From positions 1 to 15,434 of the forward strand of contig JBAZYY010000019.1 in assembly GCA_041659065.1 (NCBI GenBank): a stretch of 15,434 nucleotides of DNA, read 5' to 3'. Shown one piece after another: positions 8,534 to 12,889 of the stretch. Positions within the stretch are counted from its first letter, which is position 1. Each line of letters opens with the position of its first letter. Source of the DNA: Parcubacteria group bacterium (GTDB taxonomy: Bacteria > Patescibacteriota > Minisyncoccia > Moranbacterales > UBA11712). The position numbers were made by a program, and so were the translations under genes. The notes beneath the pieces were generated by a model. It was not told where the DNA came from and made no database searches. It worked only from the letters and a program-made list of their open reading frames with translations.

Positions 8534-8573
8534 GCAAACATAACCGGAAAATTAAAATAAAAATAATTTAGAA

Positions 8574-8579
8574 TGGAGG
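8574..8579 (+). promoter_or_regulatory. Strong Shine-Dalgarno (GGAGGT) 8 nt upstream of the 8587 ATG
   Basis: The sequence is gaatGGAGGTgaatcaATG. It is the only strong SD among the five pilin-like genes. Confidence 0.7.
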
Positions 8580-8586
8580 TGAATCA

Positions 8587-8955
8587 ATGAAAAGAAGAAT
8601 AAAATTAGTGATTAGTAGCATCACGTCCGCGGTTCTCCTGGCGCCGGTAGTGACGATGGCGCAGCTCAAGCCGCCGACAACCGGCGAAACCGGTCTTCCG
8701 GCCGGATCCATATTTGATATTATTAAGAATGTCATGTTGTGGCTTTTGGGAATCCTGGGATTCGTGGCGGTTATCGGGTTTGTCATTAGTGGAATTATGT
8801 ATCTGGTTGCGGCCGGCGACGAAAAAAGACAAGAAACAGCAAAGCAGGCTATGTACTATTCGATTATCGGCGTTATCGTCGGACTGGTGGGCCTTGTGAT
8901 TCTCTACGCAGTTCAGAAGTTGCTTGGGGGGCAGAGTGGATCGACCACTTTCTAG
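8587..8955 (+). CDS. Minimal T4SS-pilin-like (TrbC/VirB2-like) protein; candidate major subunit
   Basis: 122 aa. Signal peptide is MKRRIKLVISSITSAVLLAPVVTMA, cleaved before Q. The two-TM hairpin is NVMLWLLGILGFVAVIGFVISGIMYLVAAGDEKRQETAKQAMYYSIIGVIVGLVGLVILYAV, with a positively charged cytoplasmic loop. It has a strong SD and its own downstream terminator. Confidence 0.85.
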   Translation: MKRRIKLVISSITSAVLLAPVVTMAQLKPPTTGETGLPAGSIFDIIKNVMLWLLGILGFVAVIGFVISGIMYLVAAGDEKRQETAKQAMYYSIIGVIVGLVGLVILYAVQKLLGGQSGSTTF

Positions 8956-8982
8956 CATTCGCGAAAAAATATTGTTTCTAAA

Positions 8983-9016
8983 ACGGTTCTCTTTCTAGGT
9001 GAGAGCCGTTTTTTTA
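8983..9016 (+). terminator. Rho-independent terminator after the minimal pilin gene
   Basis: The 9-bp stem acggttctc / gagagccgt contains one G·U pair and has a 9-nt loop. It is followed by tttttttattattttt. Confidence 0.7.
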
Positions 9017-9043
9017 TTATTTTTCAAAAAAACTATTGTATTG

Positions 9044-9049
9044 TATAAT
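9044..9049 (+). promoter_or_regulatory. Candidate -10 box (TATAAT preceded by TG) for the 9073 transcription unit
   Basis: The sequence ttgtattgTATAATttc lies just downstream of the terminator and ~25 nt before ATG 9073. No convincing -35 element. Confidence 0.3.
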
Positions 9050-9072
9050 TTCAGCTAAGGAATAGCTAATCA

Positions 9073-9546
9073 TTGTTTTCGATAAAAATGAAAAAAACAA
9101 ACGGAAAAATATTTTCAAAATTACTTAATCTTCCCCGATCCATCTCCCCCTCCCCCTCCCTTTCCCTTTCTCTATCTCTATCTCTATCTCTATATCTATA
9201 TCTCTCTCTATCCATATCTCTTTTCCTAGCATTTATATTTGCAGGAAATGCGAAAGCCCAATGGGTGCCGGCGAAGCACCTGTTGACTAATCTCCCCTAT
9301 AGCCCGATATATCTGATCATATACAACGTGATGAAGTGGGGCTTGGGAATCTTCAGTTTCATTGCTGTTATCAGCTTTGGCATTAGCGGGGTGATGTATC
9401 TGGTTGCGGCTGGGGACGAAAAAAGACAGGAAGGCGCCAAACGGGCTATGTACTATTCCATCATGGGGGTCATTGTGGGCTTGAGCGGGTTGGTTATTAT
9501 CTATGCCGCGATGAAGATGCTCGGAAACCAGACAACCCAATTCTAG
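9073..9546 (+). CDS. T4SS-pilin-like (TrbC/VirB2-like) protein with an unusually long, repeat-encoded signal peptide
   Basis: 157 aa; an alternative start is ATG 9088 (MKKTNGKIF...). The signal peptide ends ...FLAFIFAGNAKA|QWVPA, the same A|Q cleavage context as the 8587 gene. The core GIFSFIAVISFGISGVMYLVAAGDEKRQEGAKRAMYYSIMGVIVGLSGLVIIYAA is ~80% identical to the 8587 core. Confidence 0.75.
   Translation: MFSIKMKKTNGKIFSKLLNLPRSISPSPSLSLSLSLSLSLYLYLSLSISLFLAFIFAGNAKAQWVPAKHLLTNLPYSPIYLIIYNVMKWGLGIFSFIAVISFGISGVMYLVAAGDEKRQEGAKRAMYYSIMGVIVGLSGLVIIYAAMKMLGNQTTQF
9141..9220 (+). repeat. CT-rich microsatellite inside the 5' coding region of the 9073 gene. It combines ctcccc repeats, two C5 homopolymers, four perfect TCTCTA units and degenerate TATCTA/CT units.
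   Basis: The sequence is catctccccctccccctccctttccctttc(tctcta)x4 tatctatatctctctctatccatatctc. The TCTCTA units occupy 9169-9192. The region translates to SPSPSLSLSLSLSLSLYLYLSLSISL inside the signal peptide. Confidence 0.85.
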
Positions 9547-9581
9547 GTGGTATGAATAAATTTCAATAATCTAAATAAAAA

Positions 9582-10331
9582 ATGAAAAAAAAAGAAAAAA
9601 AATATATTATTGGATTCTCCGTCTTTTTATTGTTTTGCATGTTCGCGATTCAAGCTTTTGCCGATGAATACGGATCGGAATCCAGAAAAATATTGGACAA
9701 ACCGATACTTATTGCCGCCGTGGGAGACGATTGCAACACGTCTGCTGATTGTTCTTCGGGAATGTCATGCGTGCCTTGTGAGAGCGTCGGGGCAAAATGT
9801 CTGGGAAATGTTTGTTGGAATGGCAGTAATACGTCTGCAGCCGCTAGCTGTTCTGAAACTTGTTACCCCATAGCCTGCCCTGAGGGCACAAGCCAAATAT
9901 CAGGTACTTGTTCTGACCAGTATAAATGTTGCGGTGGATCTGCAACAAATTATGAAAATAGCGGTTCAGTTCCCGCGGGGACTTGGGGAACTAATGTTAA
10001 TACTCAGACGGGTGGTGTAAGTAGCGTTTCGGGCTACAGCGGTTCAGCTAGCGGAGTAATCCTTCCAACTTGGAGCGGTCTTCCCACTGGAACGGTTGAA
10101 GGGGTCATCTTTACTTTCTTAATGTGGCTCCTCAGTATTTTTGGCTTTATTGCCATTATCAGTTTTATCGTGAGCGGCGTGCAATATTTTCTGGCTTTTG
10201 GCGAAGAAAAAAATATGGAAAGAGCCAAGCGGAATATGGAGTATTCGATTATTGGGGTGGTCGTCGGCCTTATCGGAGTTATTATAATTTTCGCCGTGGA
10301 TTTCTTGTTGAGAGGCGTTCCGTTGTTCTAG
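9582..10331 (+). CDS. Secreted T4SS-pilin-like protein with an N-terminal 12-Cys domain ending in CCGG
   Basis: 249 aa. Signal peptide is MKKKEKKYIIGFSVFLLFCMFAIQAFA. The Cys-rich domain lies at about 9732-9935 (DDCNTSADCSSGMSCVPCESVGAKCLGNVCWNGS...CSDQYKCCGG). A G/S/T linker follows. The pilin module lies at about 10092-10328 (VIFTFLMWLLSIFGFIAIISFIVSGVQYFLAFGEEKNMERAKRNMEYSIIGVVVGLIGVIIIFAV). Confidence 0.75.
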   Translation: MKKKEKKYIIGFSVFLLFCMFAIQAFADEYGSESRKILDKPILIAAVGDDCNTSADCSSGMSCVPCESVGAKCLGNVCWNGSNTSAAASCSETCYPIACPEGTSQISGTCSDQYKCCGGSATNYENSGSVPAGTWGTNVNTQTGGVSSVSGYSGSASGVILPTWSGLPTGTVEGVIFTFLMWLLSIFGFIAIISFIVSGVQYFLAFGEEKNMERAKRNMEYSIIGVVVGLIGVIIIFAVDFLLRGVPLF

Positions 10332-10343
10332 CTTTATAAATTT

Positions 10344-10420
10344 CTTTATAAAAAAAGAAACCCCAGGAAGAGATGCGCACCGGTTGTGGCGCGCAGAGCT
10401 CTGCCTGGGGTTTTATCTTC
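10344..10420. terminator. Bidirectional intrinsic terminator between the convergent + pilin unit and the - SPFH unit
   Basis: A long GC-rich hairpin has outer stem ccccagg (10361-10367) / cctgggg (10404-10410) and internal gcgc pairings. It is flanked by an A-run (10351-10357) and a T-run (10411-10414). Confidence 0.6.
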
Positions 10421-10429
10421 CCAGCGAGG

Positions 10430-11449
10430 TTACCGCTGGTAAAGTGTGACCGGTCCCAAGGGGGCTGGAATTTTCCAGCCGTTGAGACCGCGAATCTCCA
10501 CTTTTACTGAGGTCACTTTTTTGAGCTGACCTTTTTTAATGGAGATTTGGCAGGCGCCGGGGAATGGCATCTGCACAGCCGAGTAGATCCGGCCGTTAAT
10601 CTTAACCTCAAACTTTCTGACAACCGAAGTTTGAGGAAGGACGAACTTCAACCATAGATCGCCGAAAGCCGGCGGCGGCTCGTCTAGATCAAGCTTATAG
10701 ACGATCCACTCCCCGGCCCTCTGGTACAAGATGGCGGAAGCATTAAACTTGTCCGATAGGGCCGGAGCCAATATGGCTCCGGTGACCTGGTTTCCGGTTG
10801 TGGCGAGGGTGTTTACCCAACGCCTGACCCCCGGAAATGCGGCGTAAGAGTACCAGATGACTAGGACTAGCACCACCAGCCAGAAGATTCTCCGTCCGGT
10901 GCTCATTGAAGTGCGGGCGGTAGATGTCGTGGCGGCTGTCCGAGGTGCGGTGATTGCGTACCAAATCCCTTGCAGGATCCGAAAAGCAATGTATACCGCC
11001 AGCAGAAGCAGTAAGCCCGTGATGATATCAGCCCAGTCAATCCCCGGGATCGGGGACGGCCCTAGCTTGGGAACTCCGGGGATAGCCGGGGTTCCACTAG
11101 TCGGAGGAGCCGTAGGTGTTGTGCCTGCTCCGTGACCAAAGATAGGAGGAATTCTCGGCGCCGGAGCAGATGGGGCAGTTGTGCCTCCGCAATTGCGGAT
11201 TTTGAGGATTAACCACAGCGCTGCTCCCACTGCCAGTCCATACACAGCATACCAGAAGTACTGTATGGCTTGAGCAGTTCTTGCTGCGAAAGTTGGTGCG
11301 GCGGGAGGTGCCGCAGGCGCTCCGCCGCCAGCAGGAGGAGGCGCGGGGACTGCTCCACCAGCAGGTGCGGCAGGAGGAGTTTGCTGTTGCCAGTAACGGT
11401 AGCCGAAGTATCCAGCGACCACTAATATCGCAAGAATAATCATGCCCAT
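10430..11449 (-). CDS. Pro/Ala/Gly-rich polytopic membrane protein (hypothetical). It is translationally coupled to the upstream SPFH gene.
   Basis: 339 aa with about 4 TM helices. Low-complexity PAAPAGGAVPAPPPAGGGAPAAPPAAP loops separate the helices, and there is a ~140-aa C-terminal soluble domain. Its start ATG (11447-11449) overlaps the SPFH stop TAA (11449-11451) as TAATG. Confidence 0.65.
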   Translation of the reverse strand: MGMIILAILVVAGYFGYRYWQQQTPPAAPAGGAVPAPPPAGGGAPAAPPAAPTFAARTAQAIQYFWYAVYGLAVGAALWLILKIRNCGGTTAPSAPAPRIPPIFGHGAGTTPTAPPTSGTPAIPGVPKLGPSPIPGIDWADIITGLLLLLAVYIAFRILQGIWYAITAPRTAATTSTARTSMSTGRRIFWLVVLVLVIWYSYAAFPGVRRWVNTLATTGNQVTGAILAPALSDKFNASAILYQRAGEWIVYKLDLDEPPPAFGDLWLKFVLPQTSVVRKFEVKINGRIYSAVQMPFPGACQISIKKGQLKKVTSVKVEIRGLNGWKIPAPLGPVTLYQR

Positions 11450-12531
11450 TAGGTTTTATCTCCCTTGTTTTTAAACCTATTCTCGATGGACTGAATGGCG
11501 CCTGCTAGGCCACCCAGTAAATCTCCACTTATAGCGTAGACATTTGCTCCAGTCTTTCCAAGGGTCTCGAGCCTTCGTTGGTCGAGGTAAAAGTTACGAG
11601 CCTCTTCCCATGATATGGGATGTCCGCTCTTTAGAGCTGATTCCATAATCGCCTCGATGGCCGCAGTCCAACCCTTGGCATCTGTAACATTTGCCGACAT
11701 TCTCTTGTCAGCTTGGAATTTTTGGAGGCGCGCTTTATCGCCTTCCTCACCGTAATCAAAGTCTGGCATGTAAAAATCCTTGACCATGGCTCCGGTTTTT
11801 TCCAATAGCTGATCGCAAAGTAAGCTCAAAGAGTTTGCCACGATATCGGGTCTCTTTGTGTCAGCTTCTTCGCTCCTTAGAGCTTGGAACTTCGGACGAA
11901 CCGAATTATCAAAGCTCTCTTCTAAGTGGCCTACAGGGTCGCGGTAGTTATAGACCCACTTGATTGGGTCAACTACTTCATACCAGATATGGCCTTCAAT
12001 CGTGACAGTCACATCCTGAAGCTCTAGTTTCTTCCGCAGTTCTTCCGTAAACAAGTCACGGCGAAGCCTAACCTGGTACGGAACTGTTGCTTTTACTTTA
12101 TCGATTATCCCAGGCAAACATAAAATCCGTGGACCCGGATAAGCAACTCTGCGGAAACGCCCGAAGGTTTCAATTACATCGACTTCTTTTTCAGGCTTTT
12201 GAACATAGCCATGGGCGATATAAAAGCCTGCCGCCAAAATTGAGCCCGCAATGCCAGCCGATGCCGCTTCGTCGAAATAGCTTCCAATTAGTCCGCCGAT
12301 TATTGCACCGGCAGAAACCAAAACGGAGAAAACGATCGTCGGTACCAACCGAATGATCCAATTCGCTCGCATCGAATTTTCTTCCTCTCCATCCGATTCT
12401 TCTTTTGGATGAATTTTTTTAAACTTTATTATGACAATCAATATGATTGCCAATGGGACTAGGATTAGTGACCAATCCCAGCTTTTAATCGTCCACCATA
12501 CACTTCGCATAAAATCAATCATTTCCCACAT
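11449..12531 (-). CDS. SPFH/band-7 (stomatin/HflC-like) membrane protein
   Basis: The track ORF starts at TTG 12555. I prefer ATG 12531, preceded by a strong SD AAGGGAG with a 6-nt spacer. It has an N-terminal TM. The domain VIETFGRFRRVAYPGPRILCLPGIIDKV...TKDnv-like...VTVTIEGHIWYEVVDPIKWVYNYRDP...RSEEADT fits the SPFH fold pattern. Confidence 0.75.
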   Translation of the reverse strand: MWEMIDFMRSVWWTIKSWDWSLILVPLAIILIVIIKFKKIHPKEESDGEEENSMRANWIIRLVPTIVFSVLVSAGAIIGGLIGSYFDEAASAGIAGSILAAGFYIAHGYVQKPEKEVDVIETFGRFRRVAYPGPRILCLPGIIDKVKATVPYQVRLRRDLFTEELRKKLELQDVTVTIEGHIWYEVVDPIKWVYNYRDPVGHLEESFDNSVRPKFQALRSEEADTKRPDIVANSLSLLCDQLLEKTGAMVKDFYMPDFDYGEEGDKARLQKFQADKRMSANVTDAKGWTAAIEAIMESALKSGHPISWEEARNFYLDQRRLETLGKTGANVYAISGDLLGGLAGAIQSIENRFKNKGDKT

Positions 12532-12889
12532 ACGAGTCTCCCTTATTTTGTCCAAAATTGGACTATAAAATTTTCAAGGTGCCCCCAGGGGCTTCCCTTT
12601 TTACCAAAATGCCCTGCGATGCCGACAATTCAGACATCATATTATTATATACCAAATATAAGTAATTGTCAATATGTACGAAGCAAGCCTTTTTTGCTAT
12701 GATTCACCCCGTACTGCGGATATAGCGAAACAGATTAAATAGAGCTTAAGAATGCCTAATAATTCTGTAATTCGCGTGAAACAAAGCATAGATTAGCAAT
12801 ACTTCAATTTATAGAATTTTTTGTCGGGGTGGTCCCGCACAAATGCTCCGCATTCTGCGGGATAAATTCCATGGCGATTTTTTAATACT

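Follow-up and report, generated by a model that had tools for sequence, protein, structure and literature searches.

Does the only gene of a pilin array to carry a Shine-Dalgarno (SD) element encode the main subunit of a surface structure? The question is raised by a window of 15,434 nucleotides, the entire 15.4-kb contig of the NCBI metagenome-assembled genome "Parcubacteria group bacterium", and by its gene at 8587-8955, which encodes a 122-residue VirB2-like pilin. The host is an ultra-small groundwater bacterium, and the nearest kin of the window are Candidatus Moranbacteria/Moraniibacteriota genomes. An earlier interpretation made from the DNA letters (the sequence-only reading) had assigned to this gene an SD and a terminator that its four paralogs lacked, and had likened the locus to a major/minor pilin arrangement. 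We find that about 75 species keep the pattern of SD and terminator while their other genes are SD-less, and the 122-aa gene therefore probably encodes the main building block of the surface structure. On balance, we lean toward its product being the core subunit of a VirB2-like pilin array of Patescibacteria, dominant and boosted at translation. That this protein makes up the bulk of a filament is put forward with less confidence.

On its plus strand, the window encodes a metallo-β-lactamase (MBL)-fold protein, gyrA, and a solute-binding protein (SBP)-like lipoprotein, and then six genes within 5557-10331.

5557-6912, plus strand: divergent pilin-like paralog of 451 aa at position -2, in which two Cys-rich modules are combined with a pilin-like hairpin and a Cys-rich domain at the C terminus; no SD
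6927-7712, plus strand: gene without a pilin domain, embedded in the array; product of 261-271 aa that starts with a transmembrane segment
7745-8533, plus strand: pilin paralog of 262 aa at position -1, two pilin domains in tandem behind a Cys-rich N-terminal module; no SD
8587-8955, plus strand: VirB2-like pilin (PF18895, T4SS_pilin) of 122 aa, Pfam score 41.5 bits against a cut-off of 26.6; NCBI name "pilin"
9088-9546, plus strand: pilin paralog of 152 aa at position +1, alternative TTG start at 9073, Pfam score 28.7 bits; no SD
9582-10331, plus strand: pilin paralog of 249 aa at position +2, with a Cys-rich N-terminal module, Pfam score 26.5 bits (cut-off 26.6); no SD

The two-helix T4SS_pilin domain (PF18895, related to TrbC/VirB2 PF04956) is present in five of these six genes. 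The sequence-only reading had counted five pilin-like genes, and Pfam together with a hidden Markov model (HMM) of orthologs of the 122-aa protein gives the same number. The 122-, 262-, and 152-aa proteins score above the gathering threshold; the 262-aa paralog matches PF18895 with 66.7 bits over two stretches and PF04956 with 39.6 bits (cut-off 27.9). The 249-aa paralog lies just below the threshold and matches the ortholog HMM with E = 5e-27, and the 451-aa paralog has no Pfam hit and matches solely the ortholog HMM (E = 9.5e-6). The four paralogs are 58, 41, 30, and 25% identical to the 122-aa protein. Five pilin-domain genes plus one non-pilin gene place 5557-10331 among the Patescibacterial VirB2 pilin arrays, and its pilins are of the VirB2 type (type IV secretion), not type IV pilus pilins.

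Two elements precede the 122-aa gene.

8548-8566, plus strand: A-rich tract (AAAATA)x3 detected by Tandem Repeats Finder, just 5' of the SD
8571-8582, plus strand: extended SD GAATGGAGGTGA, matching the family consensus GAAAGGAGGTGA at 11 of 12 positions and identical in L080, a relative at 91% protein identity

The hexamer GGAGGT is located at 8575-8580 and extends to GGAGGTGA at 8575-8582, which ends 4 nt from the ATG at 8587. The assignment of a canonical GGAGGT to this gene alone among the five pilin genes is thus correct; the 8-nt spacing given with it is not, as the gap to the ATG is 6 nt counted from GGAGGT and 7 nt counted from GGAGG. The duplex with the canonical anti-SD was calculated as -15.2 kcal/mol, using a canonical tail that may not be the host's own 16S. 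Scored against that tail, the element has the complementarity (at least 5-6 nt) and the distance from the start (5-10 nt) of a canonical SD. The other pilin starts give -1.8 (5557), -0.7 (7745), -1.5 (9088; -4.8 at the TTG at 9073), and -0.8 kcal/mol (9582), and this range of -0.7 to -4.8 agrees with the view that the paralogs lack a recognizable SD. The leaders of these four genes are A-rich and unstructured. Taking the best SD over all candidate starts of the long paralogs was rejected as misleading, as their Gly-rich linkers encode GGAGGTGG internally (for example at 8009). No known RNA family was found by Rfam in the leader or the terminator region. The motif itself is not rare: 0.35 copies of GGAGGTGA are expected in the window, and 66 of 200 shuffles contain at least one. 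A lone copy is therefore unremarkable within the window, and its significance comes from its position and its conservation across genomes. A chance origin of the SD is ruled out by conservation among relatives, not by window statistics.

Conservation was determined in 79 loci, nearly all from Moranbacteria, that were collected by a scan of species-representative genomes with about 8 kb on each side of the arrays (967 kb). Ortholog classes were assigned per locus and by the SD, which replaced a too-strict HMM score of at least 150. Close relatives of the 122-aa protein number in the hundreds; they are 114-124 aa long and 50-91% identical to it. Each related locus contains two to nine pilin-domain genes in a recurring order: a long divergent pilin-like gene, often a non-pilin gene, a two-domain pilin, the ortholog of about 120 aa, and at least one further pilin. 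An SD of -10 kcal/mol or stronger precedes a pilin of no more than 145 aa in 73 loci. Two more (L022 and L040), in which an ATG 15 codons downstream fits the ortholog N terminus, were added to the SD-led set, and two loci (L018 and L057) were not evaluable because a contig end cuts the array. An SD-led short VirB2-like pilin is thus found in 75 of 78 evaluable arrays. The sole true exceptions, L060, L061, and L063, contain a clear ortholog-like short pilin without an SD; they may reveal SD replacement or a different 16S tail. A fusion of two pilin domains stands just before the SD-led gene in 72 loci.

The consensus of the SD, GAAAGGAGGTGA, is the exact 12-nt complement of the canonical 5'-UCACCUCCUUUC-3', and each position is 75-100% conserved. 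The spacing from GGAGG to the start is 6-9 nt in 73 of 76 genes. GGAGGTG occurs 164 times on both strands of the 967 kb, and 70 of these copies sit 4-10 nt before the start of an SD-led gene. A tract resembling AAAATAAAA is found at -60 to -13 in 27 of 76 SD-led pilin leaders (36%), whereas its frequency elsewhere in the arrays is 0-8%. It may act as a translational enhancer, as an RNase or processing site, or as a -10-like element. The closest comparison is with the 668-bp contig of L080. Its leader from -20 to the ATG, its hairpin, and its -10 are identical to the window, whereas about half of the 24-nt spacer from stop codon to hairpin is substituted and synonymous sites have diverged. In the gene maps of two relatives at 87% identity, order and spacing are as in the window. 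These alignments indicate that the asymmetry of expression signals is under strong purifying selection.

In six loci (L011, L017, L029, L035, L049, and L067), AAAGGAGGTGA is replaced by a split form of the SD, AAAGG(CT/CA/TT/TA)GGTGA, which lies near locus position 8000 and some 10-25 nt ahead of the pilin start. This sub-clade variant is one base longer, has two variable middle bases, and pairs with about -11 kcal/mol. It could be deliberately weakened or could track an altered 16S tail.

The other pilin-domain genes of these loci have an SD of -10 or stronger in only 9 of 306 cases. Among paralogs of no more than 145 aa the count is 7 of 151, most of them copies or near-copies that lie in tandem with the ortholog. 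In relatives, the ortholog is followed by one or two paralogs that are equally short (about 115-125 aa) and SD-less. Short paralogs are as SD-free as long ones, so the rule concerns one orthologous lineage and not minimal size. The sequence-only reading had set a minimal pilin against decorated ones, and the 151 other short paralogs do not allow this as the rule.

The absence of an SD has to be read against the genomic background. When 541 non-pilin open reading frames (ORFs) no shorter than 120 aa were scored at their first ATG, only 4.4% reached an SD of -10 or stronger, close to the 2.9% of an internal in-frame ATG null, and at -14 or stronger the value is 0.2% in both sets. Conserved neighbor genes (SBP, methyltransferase, NusA, TypA, trigger factor (Tig), pyrophosphatase, ClpP, GyrA, RluA, and others) have such an SD in 1 of 239 cases, and none reaches -14 even when the best candidate start is taken. 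With SDs on so few paralogs and on a single housekeeping neighbor, the lineage initiates almost without SDs. The sequence-only reading had stated that general SD-independent initiation would weaken its case, and this is what the sampled loci show. SD-less initiation is the genome default, and a missing SD is therefore no mark of weak paralog expression. The major/minor proposal survives in part: the asymmetry is real, recurs in 75 of the 78 arrays, and fits one dominant subunit, but the lack of an SD does not make the paralogs weak. A maximal SD kept across about 75 species in this setting must be a rare, functional exception. The only other clear long-SD case in the sampled sequence is GGGAGGTGA, which precedes the gene of a 153-aa secreted protein with its own terminator (L056, 3008-3469, minus strand). 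It hints that the SD-led genes of the lineage may form a small class that encodes secreted or structural proteins.

The 3' signals and promoters define the transcription units of the array.

8980-9015, plus strand: intrinsic terminator, stem 8980-8991/9001-9012 with a 9-nt loop and a run of seven T at 9009-9015
9021-9049, plus strand: promoter-like site TTTTCA-17-TATAAT after the 8980 terminator, from which transcription would resume into the two pilin genes that follow, with the -10 kept in L080
10357-10414, both strands: large terminator hairpin, predicted for both directions, at the end of the second pilin unit and of a convergent gene
4033-5511, plus strand: SBP-like lipoprotein (PF13416, PF01547), possibly opening the transcription unit that closes at the 8980 terminator

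A strong intrinsic terminator right after the 122-aa gene had been proposed, and direct folding recovers it at 8980-9015 with -16.3 kcal/mol. The stem pairs AAAACGGTTCTC (8980-8991) with GAGAGCCGTTTT (9001-9012) in 12 bp with an 8-bp G/C-containing core; z is -5.0, and none of 200 shuffles folds as well. The hairpin starts 24 nt past the TAG stop codon. It was unlisted by the pattern scanner, whose loop limit is 8 nt, and the direct fold settled the matter. With its GC-containing stem-loop and adjoining U-tract downstream of the stop, it has the form of an intrinsic terminator and is predicted to act as one. The hairpin is not unique among the pilin genes, as had been claimed, because a much larger one follows 9582-10331 at 10357-10414; in a 111-nt window it folds with -41 kcal/mol on the plus strand (z = -4.1) and -46 kcal/mol on the minus strand (z = -5.6).

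Nor is the 8980 hairpin the gene's "own" terminator. It ends a multi-gene unit in which the 122-aa gene is the last cistron. The 53-nt gap behind 7745-8533 is terminator-free, so the 262-aa paralog gene is probably co-transcribed with the 122-aa gene, and neither pattern scan nor folding detected a terminator between 5511 and 8955. A promoter-like site at 3967-3995 follows the gyrA terminator (3931-3959) and lies upstream of the SBP gene. The decorated paralogs had been described as one co-transcribed block; the promoter-like site at 9021-9049 splits off 9088-9546 and 9582-10331. As this site follows the 8980 terminator, the array probably consists of two units, one from 5557 (perhaps 4033) to 8955 and one from 9088 to 10331. 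A candidate promoter of the 122-aa gene itself at 8345-8373 (TTGTCC-17-TATAAT with TG) was rejected; it lies inside the upstream gene, and strong -10 elements upstream of the orthologs are no commoner than expected from random windows.

The relatives are organized in the same way. Right behind the terminator and ahead of the next pilin, 38 of 64 loci (59%) have a strong or extended -10, often tGTGGTATAAT; such an element precedes the SD-led gene in 10 of 76 cases (13%) and occurs in 10% of random windows. Since the -10 is enriched at the next pilin and not at the SD-led gene, the latter is usually the last cistron of the upstream unit; its gap to the preceding gene is typically 40-80 nt. Terminators were scored as hairpins of -8 kcal/mol or stronger with a T-tract starting within 60 nt of the stop. 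They follow 65 of 74 SD-led genes (median distance 23 nt, median energy -17.8 kcal/mol). For the other pilin genes the count is 64 of 304, for non-pilin ORFs 55 of 167, and for intragenic control positions 20 of 167 (12%). The hairpins of distant loci are non-homologous, which means that terminator function, not sequence, is conserved. The conservation check that the sequence-only reading had called for thus supports both signals in orthologous loci.

The 122-aa protein has a signal peptide followed by two hydrophobic helices joined by an AAGDEK loop. The signal peptide is probably cut after VVTMA, before Q26. In 33 aligned orthologs M1, A25, and Q26 are invariant, and an A-x-A-Q signal peptidase-like site and the whole hairpin are nearly so. 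An AlphaFold2 (AF2) model places helices at 3-25, 42-74, and 79-114 with a mean predicted local distance difference test (pLDDT) score of 71, so that alignment and model agree on a signal peptide and a two-helix hairpin with a short charged loop. The family comprises 7038 cluster representatives at E ≤ 1e-3. Relatives in the sequence library (P0121, P0123, and P0131) include chains of about 550 aa with up to six tandem pilin domains. VirB2-like pilin arrays of 2-11 genes are described in 383 Patescibacterial assemblies (PMC12102498), and the array of Southlakia epibionticum (SEML1_0006-0019) lies inside a type IV secretion system (T4SS) cluster and is essential (Wang et al. 2023, PMC10633639). 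Such arrays are widespread in Patescibacteria and essential in the sole species tested.

These elements can be arranged into a mechanism. The transcription unit would run from the 451-aa gene, or from the SBP gene, through the 271-aa and 262-aa genes to the 122-aa gene as its last cistron. This cistron would be translated far more often than the co-transcribed decorated paralogs ahead of it, and its yield relative to theirs would be set at translation. The last cistron would recruit 30S subunits by pairing with the 16S tail, and the other cistrons would use the default route through A-rich, unstructured leaders. The 5'-bound ribosome and the 3' hairpin might also stabilize this part of the mRNA. 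The abundant mature hairpin protein of about 95 residues would then form the bulk of a VirB2-type polymer or membrane assembly, which the paralogs, several with extracellular Cys-rich N-terminal modules, would enter or cap in smaller amounts. The scheme expects a 16S 3' tail ending in ...GAUCACCUCCUUUC. No rRNA gene is present in the window or in any of the sampled loci.

Two proxies for expression were compared between array positions. The mean pairwise identity of the hairpin domain between genomes is 0.61 for the SD-led gene, 0.52 for +1, 0.45 for +2, and 0.42 for -1, with the SD-led domain more conserved than +1 in 83% of locus pairs; positional orthology is approximate in this comparison, and the HMM was built from SD-led orthologs, which favors that class somewhat. 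The SD-led gene also has the highest share of C-ending Phe, Ile, and Asn codons and of GGT and GCT codons. In a paired test the codon bias is 0.44 versus 0.38 for +1 (p = 0.007), and the comparison with all paralog domains reaches p = 0.04; the pooled Sharp-type S is 0.20, a weak signal from which Tyr deviates. The effects are modest in both proxies.

The limits of both proxies weigh against a dominant pilus subunit, as do the following points. Very long SDs can slow ribosome clearance in Escherichia coli, and 12-nt pairing therefore need not maximize output. More mRNA could be made of the next paralog, whose promoter has a consensus extended -10. The fold comparison cannot separate the 122-aa helical hairpin from unrelated hairpins: Foldseek returned no PDB hit at E ≤ 0.001, and the conjugation pilus of A. 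pernix (8dfu) ranks fourth (E = 1.8, template-modeling score 0.45/0.62). Neither VirB4, VirB6, nor VirD4 is encoded within 8 kb on either side of the arrays in the window and the 79 loci. Literature searches for transcript or protein abundance of these pilins returned nothing usable. Bacteroidia have SD-blind ribosomes, and their SD-bearing rpsU is regulated, not simply overexpressed (PMC13000453, PMC9976891). The anti-SD motif CCUCCU was undetected in about half of Parcubacteria 16S genes (PMC9297842), and, in the passages found of PMC12857230, no pilus has been seen from such Patescibacterial proteins.

One alternative is that the SD is a regulatory or stabilizing device and not simply a high-output signal. 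In the regulatory version, modeled on Bacteroidia rpsU, the anti-SD would normally be unavailable, and translation would depend on a ribosome subpopulation or on conditions such as host contact. In the stabilizing version, modeled on the stabilizing SD (STAB-SD), a bound 30S subunit would mainly shield the mRNA 5' end from 5'-3' decay. The 12-nt element exceeds what initiation needs and contains, within the consensus, GAAAGGAGG, which we take to be the STAB-SD sequence. A structured hairpin abuts the SD in the 5' untranslated region (UTR) of some relatives, the split AAAGG(NN)GGTGA is kept in one sub-clade, and the lineage is otherwise SD-free with A-rich leaders, as in Bacteroidia (PMC13000457, PMC13000453). 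The tight 6-9 nt spacing, however, suits initiation, whereas STAB-SD acts far from the start codon (PMC4113751), and bS21, which Bacteroidia need for anti-SD sequestration, is reported to be missing from many Parcubacteria (PMC9297842). The slow evolution and the codon bias are what high expression would lead one to expect, and stabilization is compatible with high output. We consider it unlikely that regulation or stabilization replaces the translational boost of the core subunit.

A 40-60-nt element, CCCTGTT(A/G)A...T(T/C)(A/G)ACAGGG, with one or two variable inner GC hairpins, recurs in relatives (L012 7913-7962, L017 7936-7976, L067 7915-7975, L007 5944-5997, and L020 9960-10009) and is absent from the window. 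In most of these loci a pilin gene follows, with its SD or ATG about 10-25 nt beyond the end of the element. The recurring CCCTGTTAA hairpin has no Rfam match. The element may be a structured part of the 5' UTR, or else a mobile repeat of small size.

A second alternative questions the pilus itself. The SD-led product would be an abundant small membrane protein, such as an envelope or channel component, and the name "pilin" would reflect a shared two-helix hairpin. The secretion genes missing near all 80 loci, the housekeeping neighbors and SBP-like lipoprotein in their place, and the best solved pilin at E = 1.8 agree with this view, as do a profile search of PDB sequences with the pilin family, which gave nothing relevant, and a review that, in the passages found, speaks of a "potential to elaborate" a pilus and of no observed Patescibacterial T4SS pilus (PMC12857230). 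Without a significant Foldseek match, family membership rests on the HMM matches. These are above curated cut-offs for both T4SS_pilin and TrbC/VirB2, and the NCBIfam hits, all sub-threshold, are to a "pilin-like conjugal transfer protein" of Mollicutes integrative and conjugative elements (ICEs). Elsewhere in Patescibacteria such genes lie within an essential T4SS cluster (PMC10633639) and, in passages of PMC12102498, near virB4 in 1135 of 1948 assemblies, so adjacency to virB4 is not obligatory. The extracellular Cys-rich N-terminal modules of the paralogs suit display on a surface polymer. A non-pilus role is an improbable, though serious, competitor of the core pilin subunit.

The Cys-rich modules lie between signal peptide and pilin hairpin of the long paralogs (window 5700-6050, 7800-7960, and 9720-9960), and the motif Y-x-E-x-x-C-T-A-x-G-G-x-C...CC is common to the 451-aa and 262-aa proteins. 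They have no Pfam match and are presumably extracellular and disulfide-bonded.

The array could also be a set of interchangeable major subunits for host-range or antigenic variation, with the SD-led gene as default variant and the others for other conditions, an idea that PMC12102498 takes from Bartonella and Anaplasma and applies to the VirB2 arrays of Patescibacteria. The window paralogs, at 25-58% identity to the SD-led protein, evolve faster, the promoter of the downstream pair permits separate regulation, and a simple repeat in the +1 signal-peptide region varies in length. This is the least probable of the three alternatives, as stable order and paralog identity over about 75 species (two-domain -1, SD-led 0, +1 of about 125 aa) suggest fixed roles, the upstream decorated paralogs are apparently co-transcribed and hence made together with the SD-led gene, and no inversion or recombination signals were seen near the array.

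The repeats of the +1 gene, (CTCCCC)x2.8 and (TCTCTA)x8.8 at 9144-9221, fall in the part that encodes the signal peptide, where they translate into SLSLSLSL...YLYLSLSI, a run of unusual length. L080 has a shorter tract, which points to in-frame expansion. NCBI places the start of this gene at a later GTG (93 aa, P0117), with which the signal peptide would be lost. In 49 of 80 loci the SBP_bac_8/SBP_bac_1 lipoprotein gene stands immediately 5' of the array and in the same orientation. Its neighborhood contains neither permease nor ATPase genes, and it may be co-transcribed and functionally linked with the array. The non-pilin gene at 6927-7712 is kept at the same array position in at least 12-14 loci, and its product has no match in Pfam, NCBIfam, or PDB. 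Downstream of the array, a minus-strand block at 10430-12555 holds two genes, one for a membrane protein of 339 aa rich in Pro and Ala and one for an SPFH/Band-7 protein of 368 aa, each gene preceded by the SD-like motif AAGGGAGA. Its GC content is 0.52-0.56, compared with about 0.43 in the rest of the window, and in relatives without it rluA directly follows the pilin array; from this absence and the GC shift the block looks like a foreign insertion. At the rluA start (window 13087), TAAGGAGT abuts the ATG; its spacing of 0-1 nt is too tight for a normal SD, and the rluA genes of relatives do not share the motif.

Returning to the SD-led core pilin, a wider proposal is possible and is offered tentatively: Moranbacteria, and perhaps wider Parcubacteria, may have dropped genome-wide SD initiation and kept the anti-SD for a few privileged mRNAs, chiefly that of the core pilin, which its 12-nt SD and 3' hairpin would turn into one of the cell's most abundant proteins and the bulk subunit of a putative Patescibacterial T4SS-type filament. 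If so, the conserved SD would be a sequence tag for the structural core subunit of every such array. It would also be the second independent case, after Bacteroidia rpsU, of a near-SD-less lineage reserving SD pairing for one purpose. The coexistence of SD-less housekeeping genes with one 12-nt anti-SD complement bears on why SD-poor bacteria retain the anti-SD. In practice, the signature marks the probable core subunit, gives a target for antibodies, proteomics, cryo-electron tomography, and modeling of homo- and heteropolymers, and yields a testable prediction of stoichiometry.

The locus shares features with several known systems. In chaperone-usher pili (pap, fim) and type IV pilA loci, the gene of the abundant subunit is followed by an internal hairpin terminator and minor subunits are expressed lower. 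These belong to unrelated protein families and assembly machines. Their major subunit is usually encoded by the leading gene or transcribed from a separate promoter, whereas the candidate in this array ends the upstream unit and is set apart mainly by its SD in an otherwise SD-less genome. The features in common with VirB2 (Ti plasmid), TrbC (RP4), and TraA (F) are a signal peptide and two hydrophobic helices with a short charged loop, with the TrbC/VirB2 Pfam model matching the 262-aa paralog, T4SS_pilin the others, and AF2 giving a helical hairpin. Unlike these conjugative pilins, the array has no adjacent T4SS, resides in a monoderm, and comprises multiple paralogs with N-terminal Cys-rich decorations and tandem-domain fusions. 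With Bacteroidia the lineage shares the lineage-wide absence of SDs, A-rich leaders, and very few conserved extended SDs (PMC13000453, PMC9976891, PMC7797042, PMC13000457). Besides the reported frequent lack of bS21, it differs from them in that the exceptional gene encodes a secreted structural protein, not a ribosomal protein like rpsU, so a ribosome autoregulatory loop is not expected. The STAB-SD of Bacillus thuringiensis cry3A is likewise a long complement of the 16S tail on the gene of a very abundant protein, in a monoderm and with a 3' hairpin; it is non-initiating and far from the start codon, whereas the element here lies at a canonical 6-9 nt (PMC4113751).

The closest relatives are the Patescibacterial arrays (Quinonero-Coronel et al. 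2025, PMC12102498). In the passages found, these too consist of several divergent tandem PF18895/PF04956 genes, sometimes with a non-pilin gene between, and occur in monoderms with reduced genomes and low paralog identity. The present array is not next to virB4, as Southlakia and other Patescibacterial T4SS arrays are, and lies between gyrA/SBP and rluA among housekeeping genes. The passages found of the array papers (PMC12102498, PMC10633639, PMC12857230) make no mention of a paralog with SD and terminator, of fixed positions, or of differential expression signals. The gene family, the array type, and the setting of subunit ratios by terminator and differential translation are already known; the novelty seems to lie in the constant arrangement of paralogs among Moranbacteria and in one near-perfect SD where SDs are otherwise missing.

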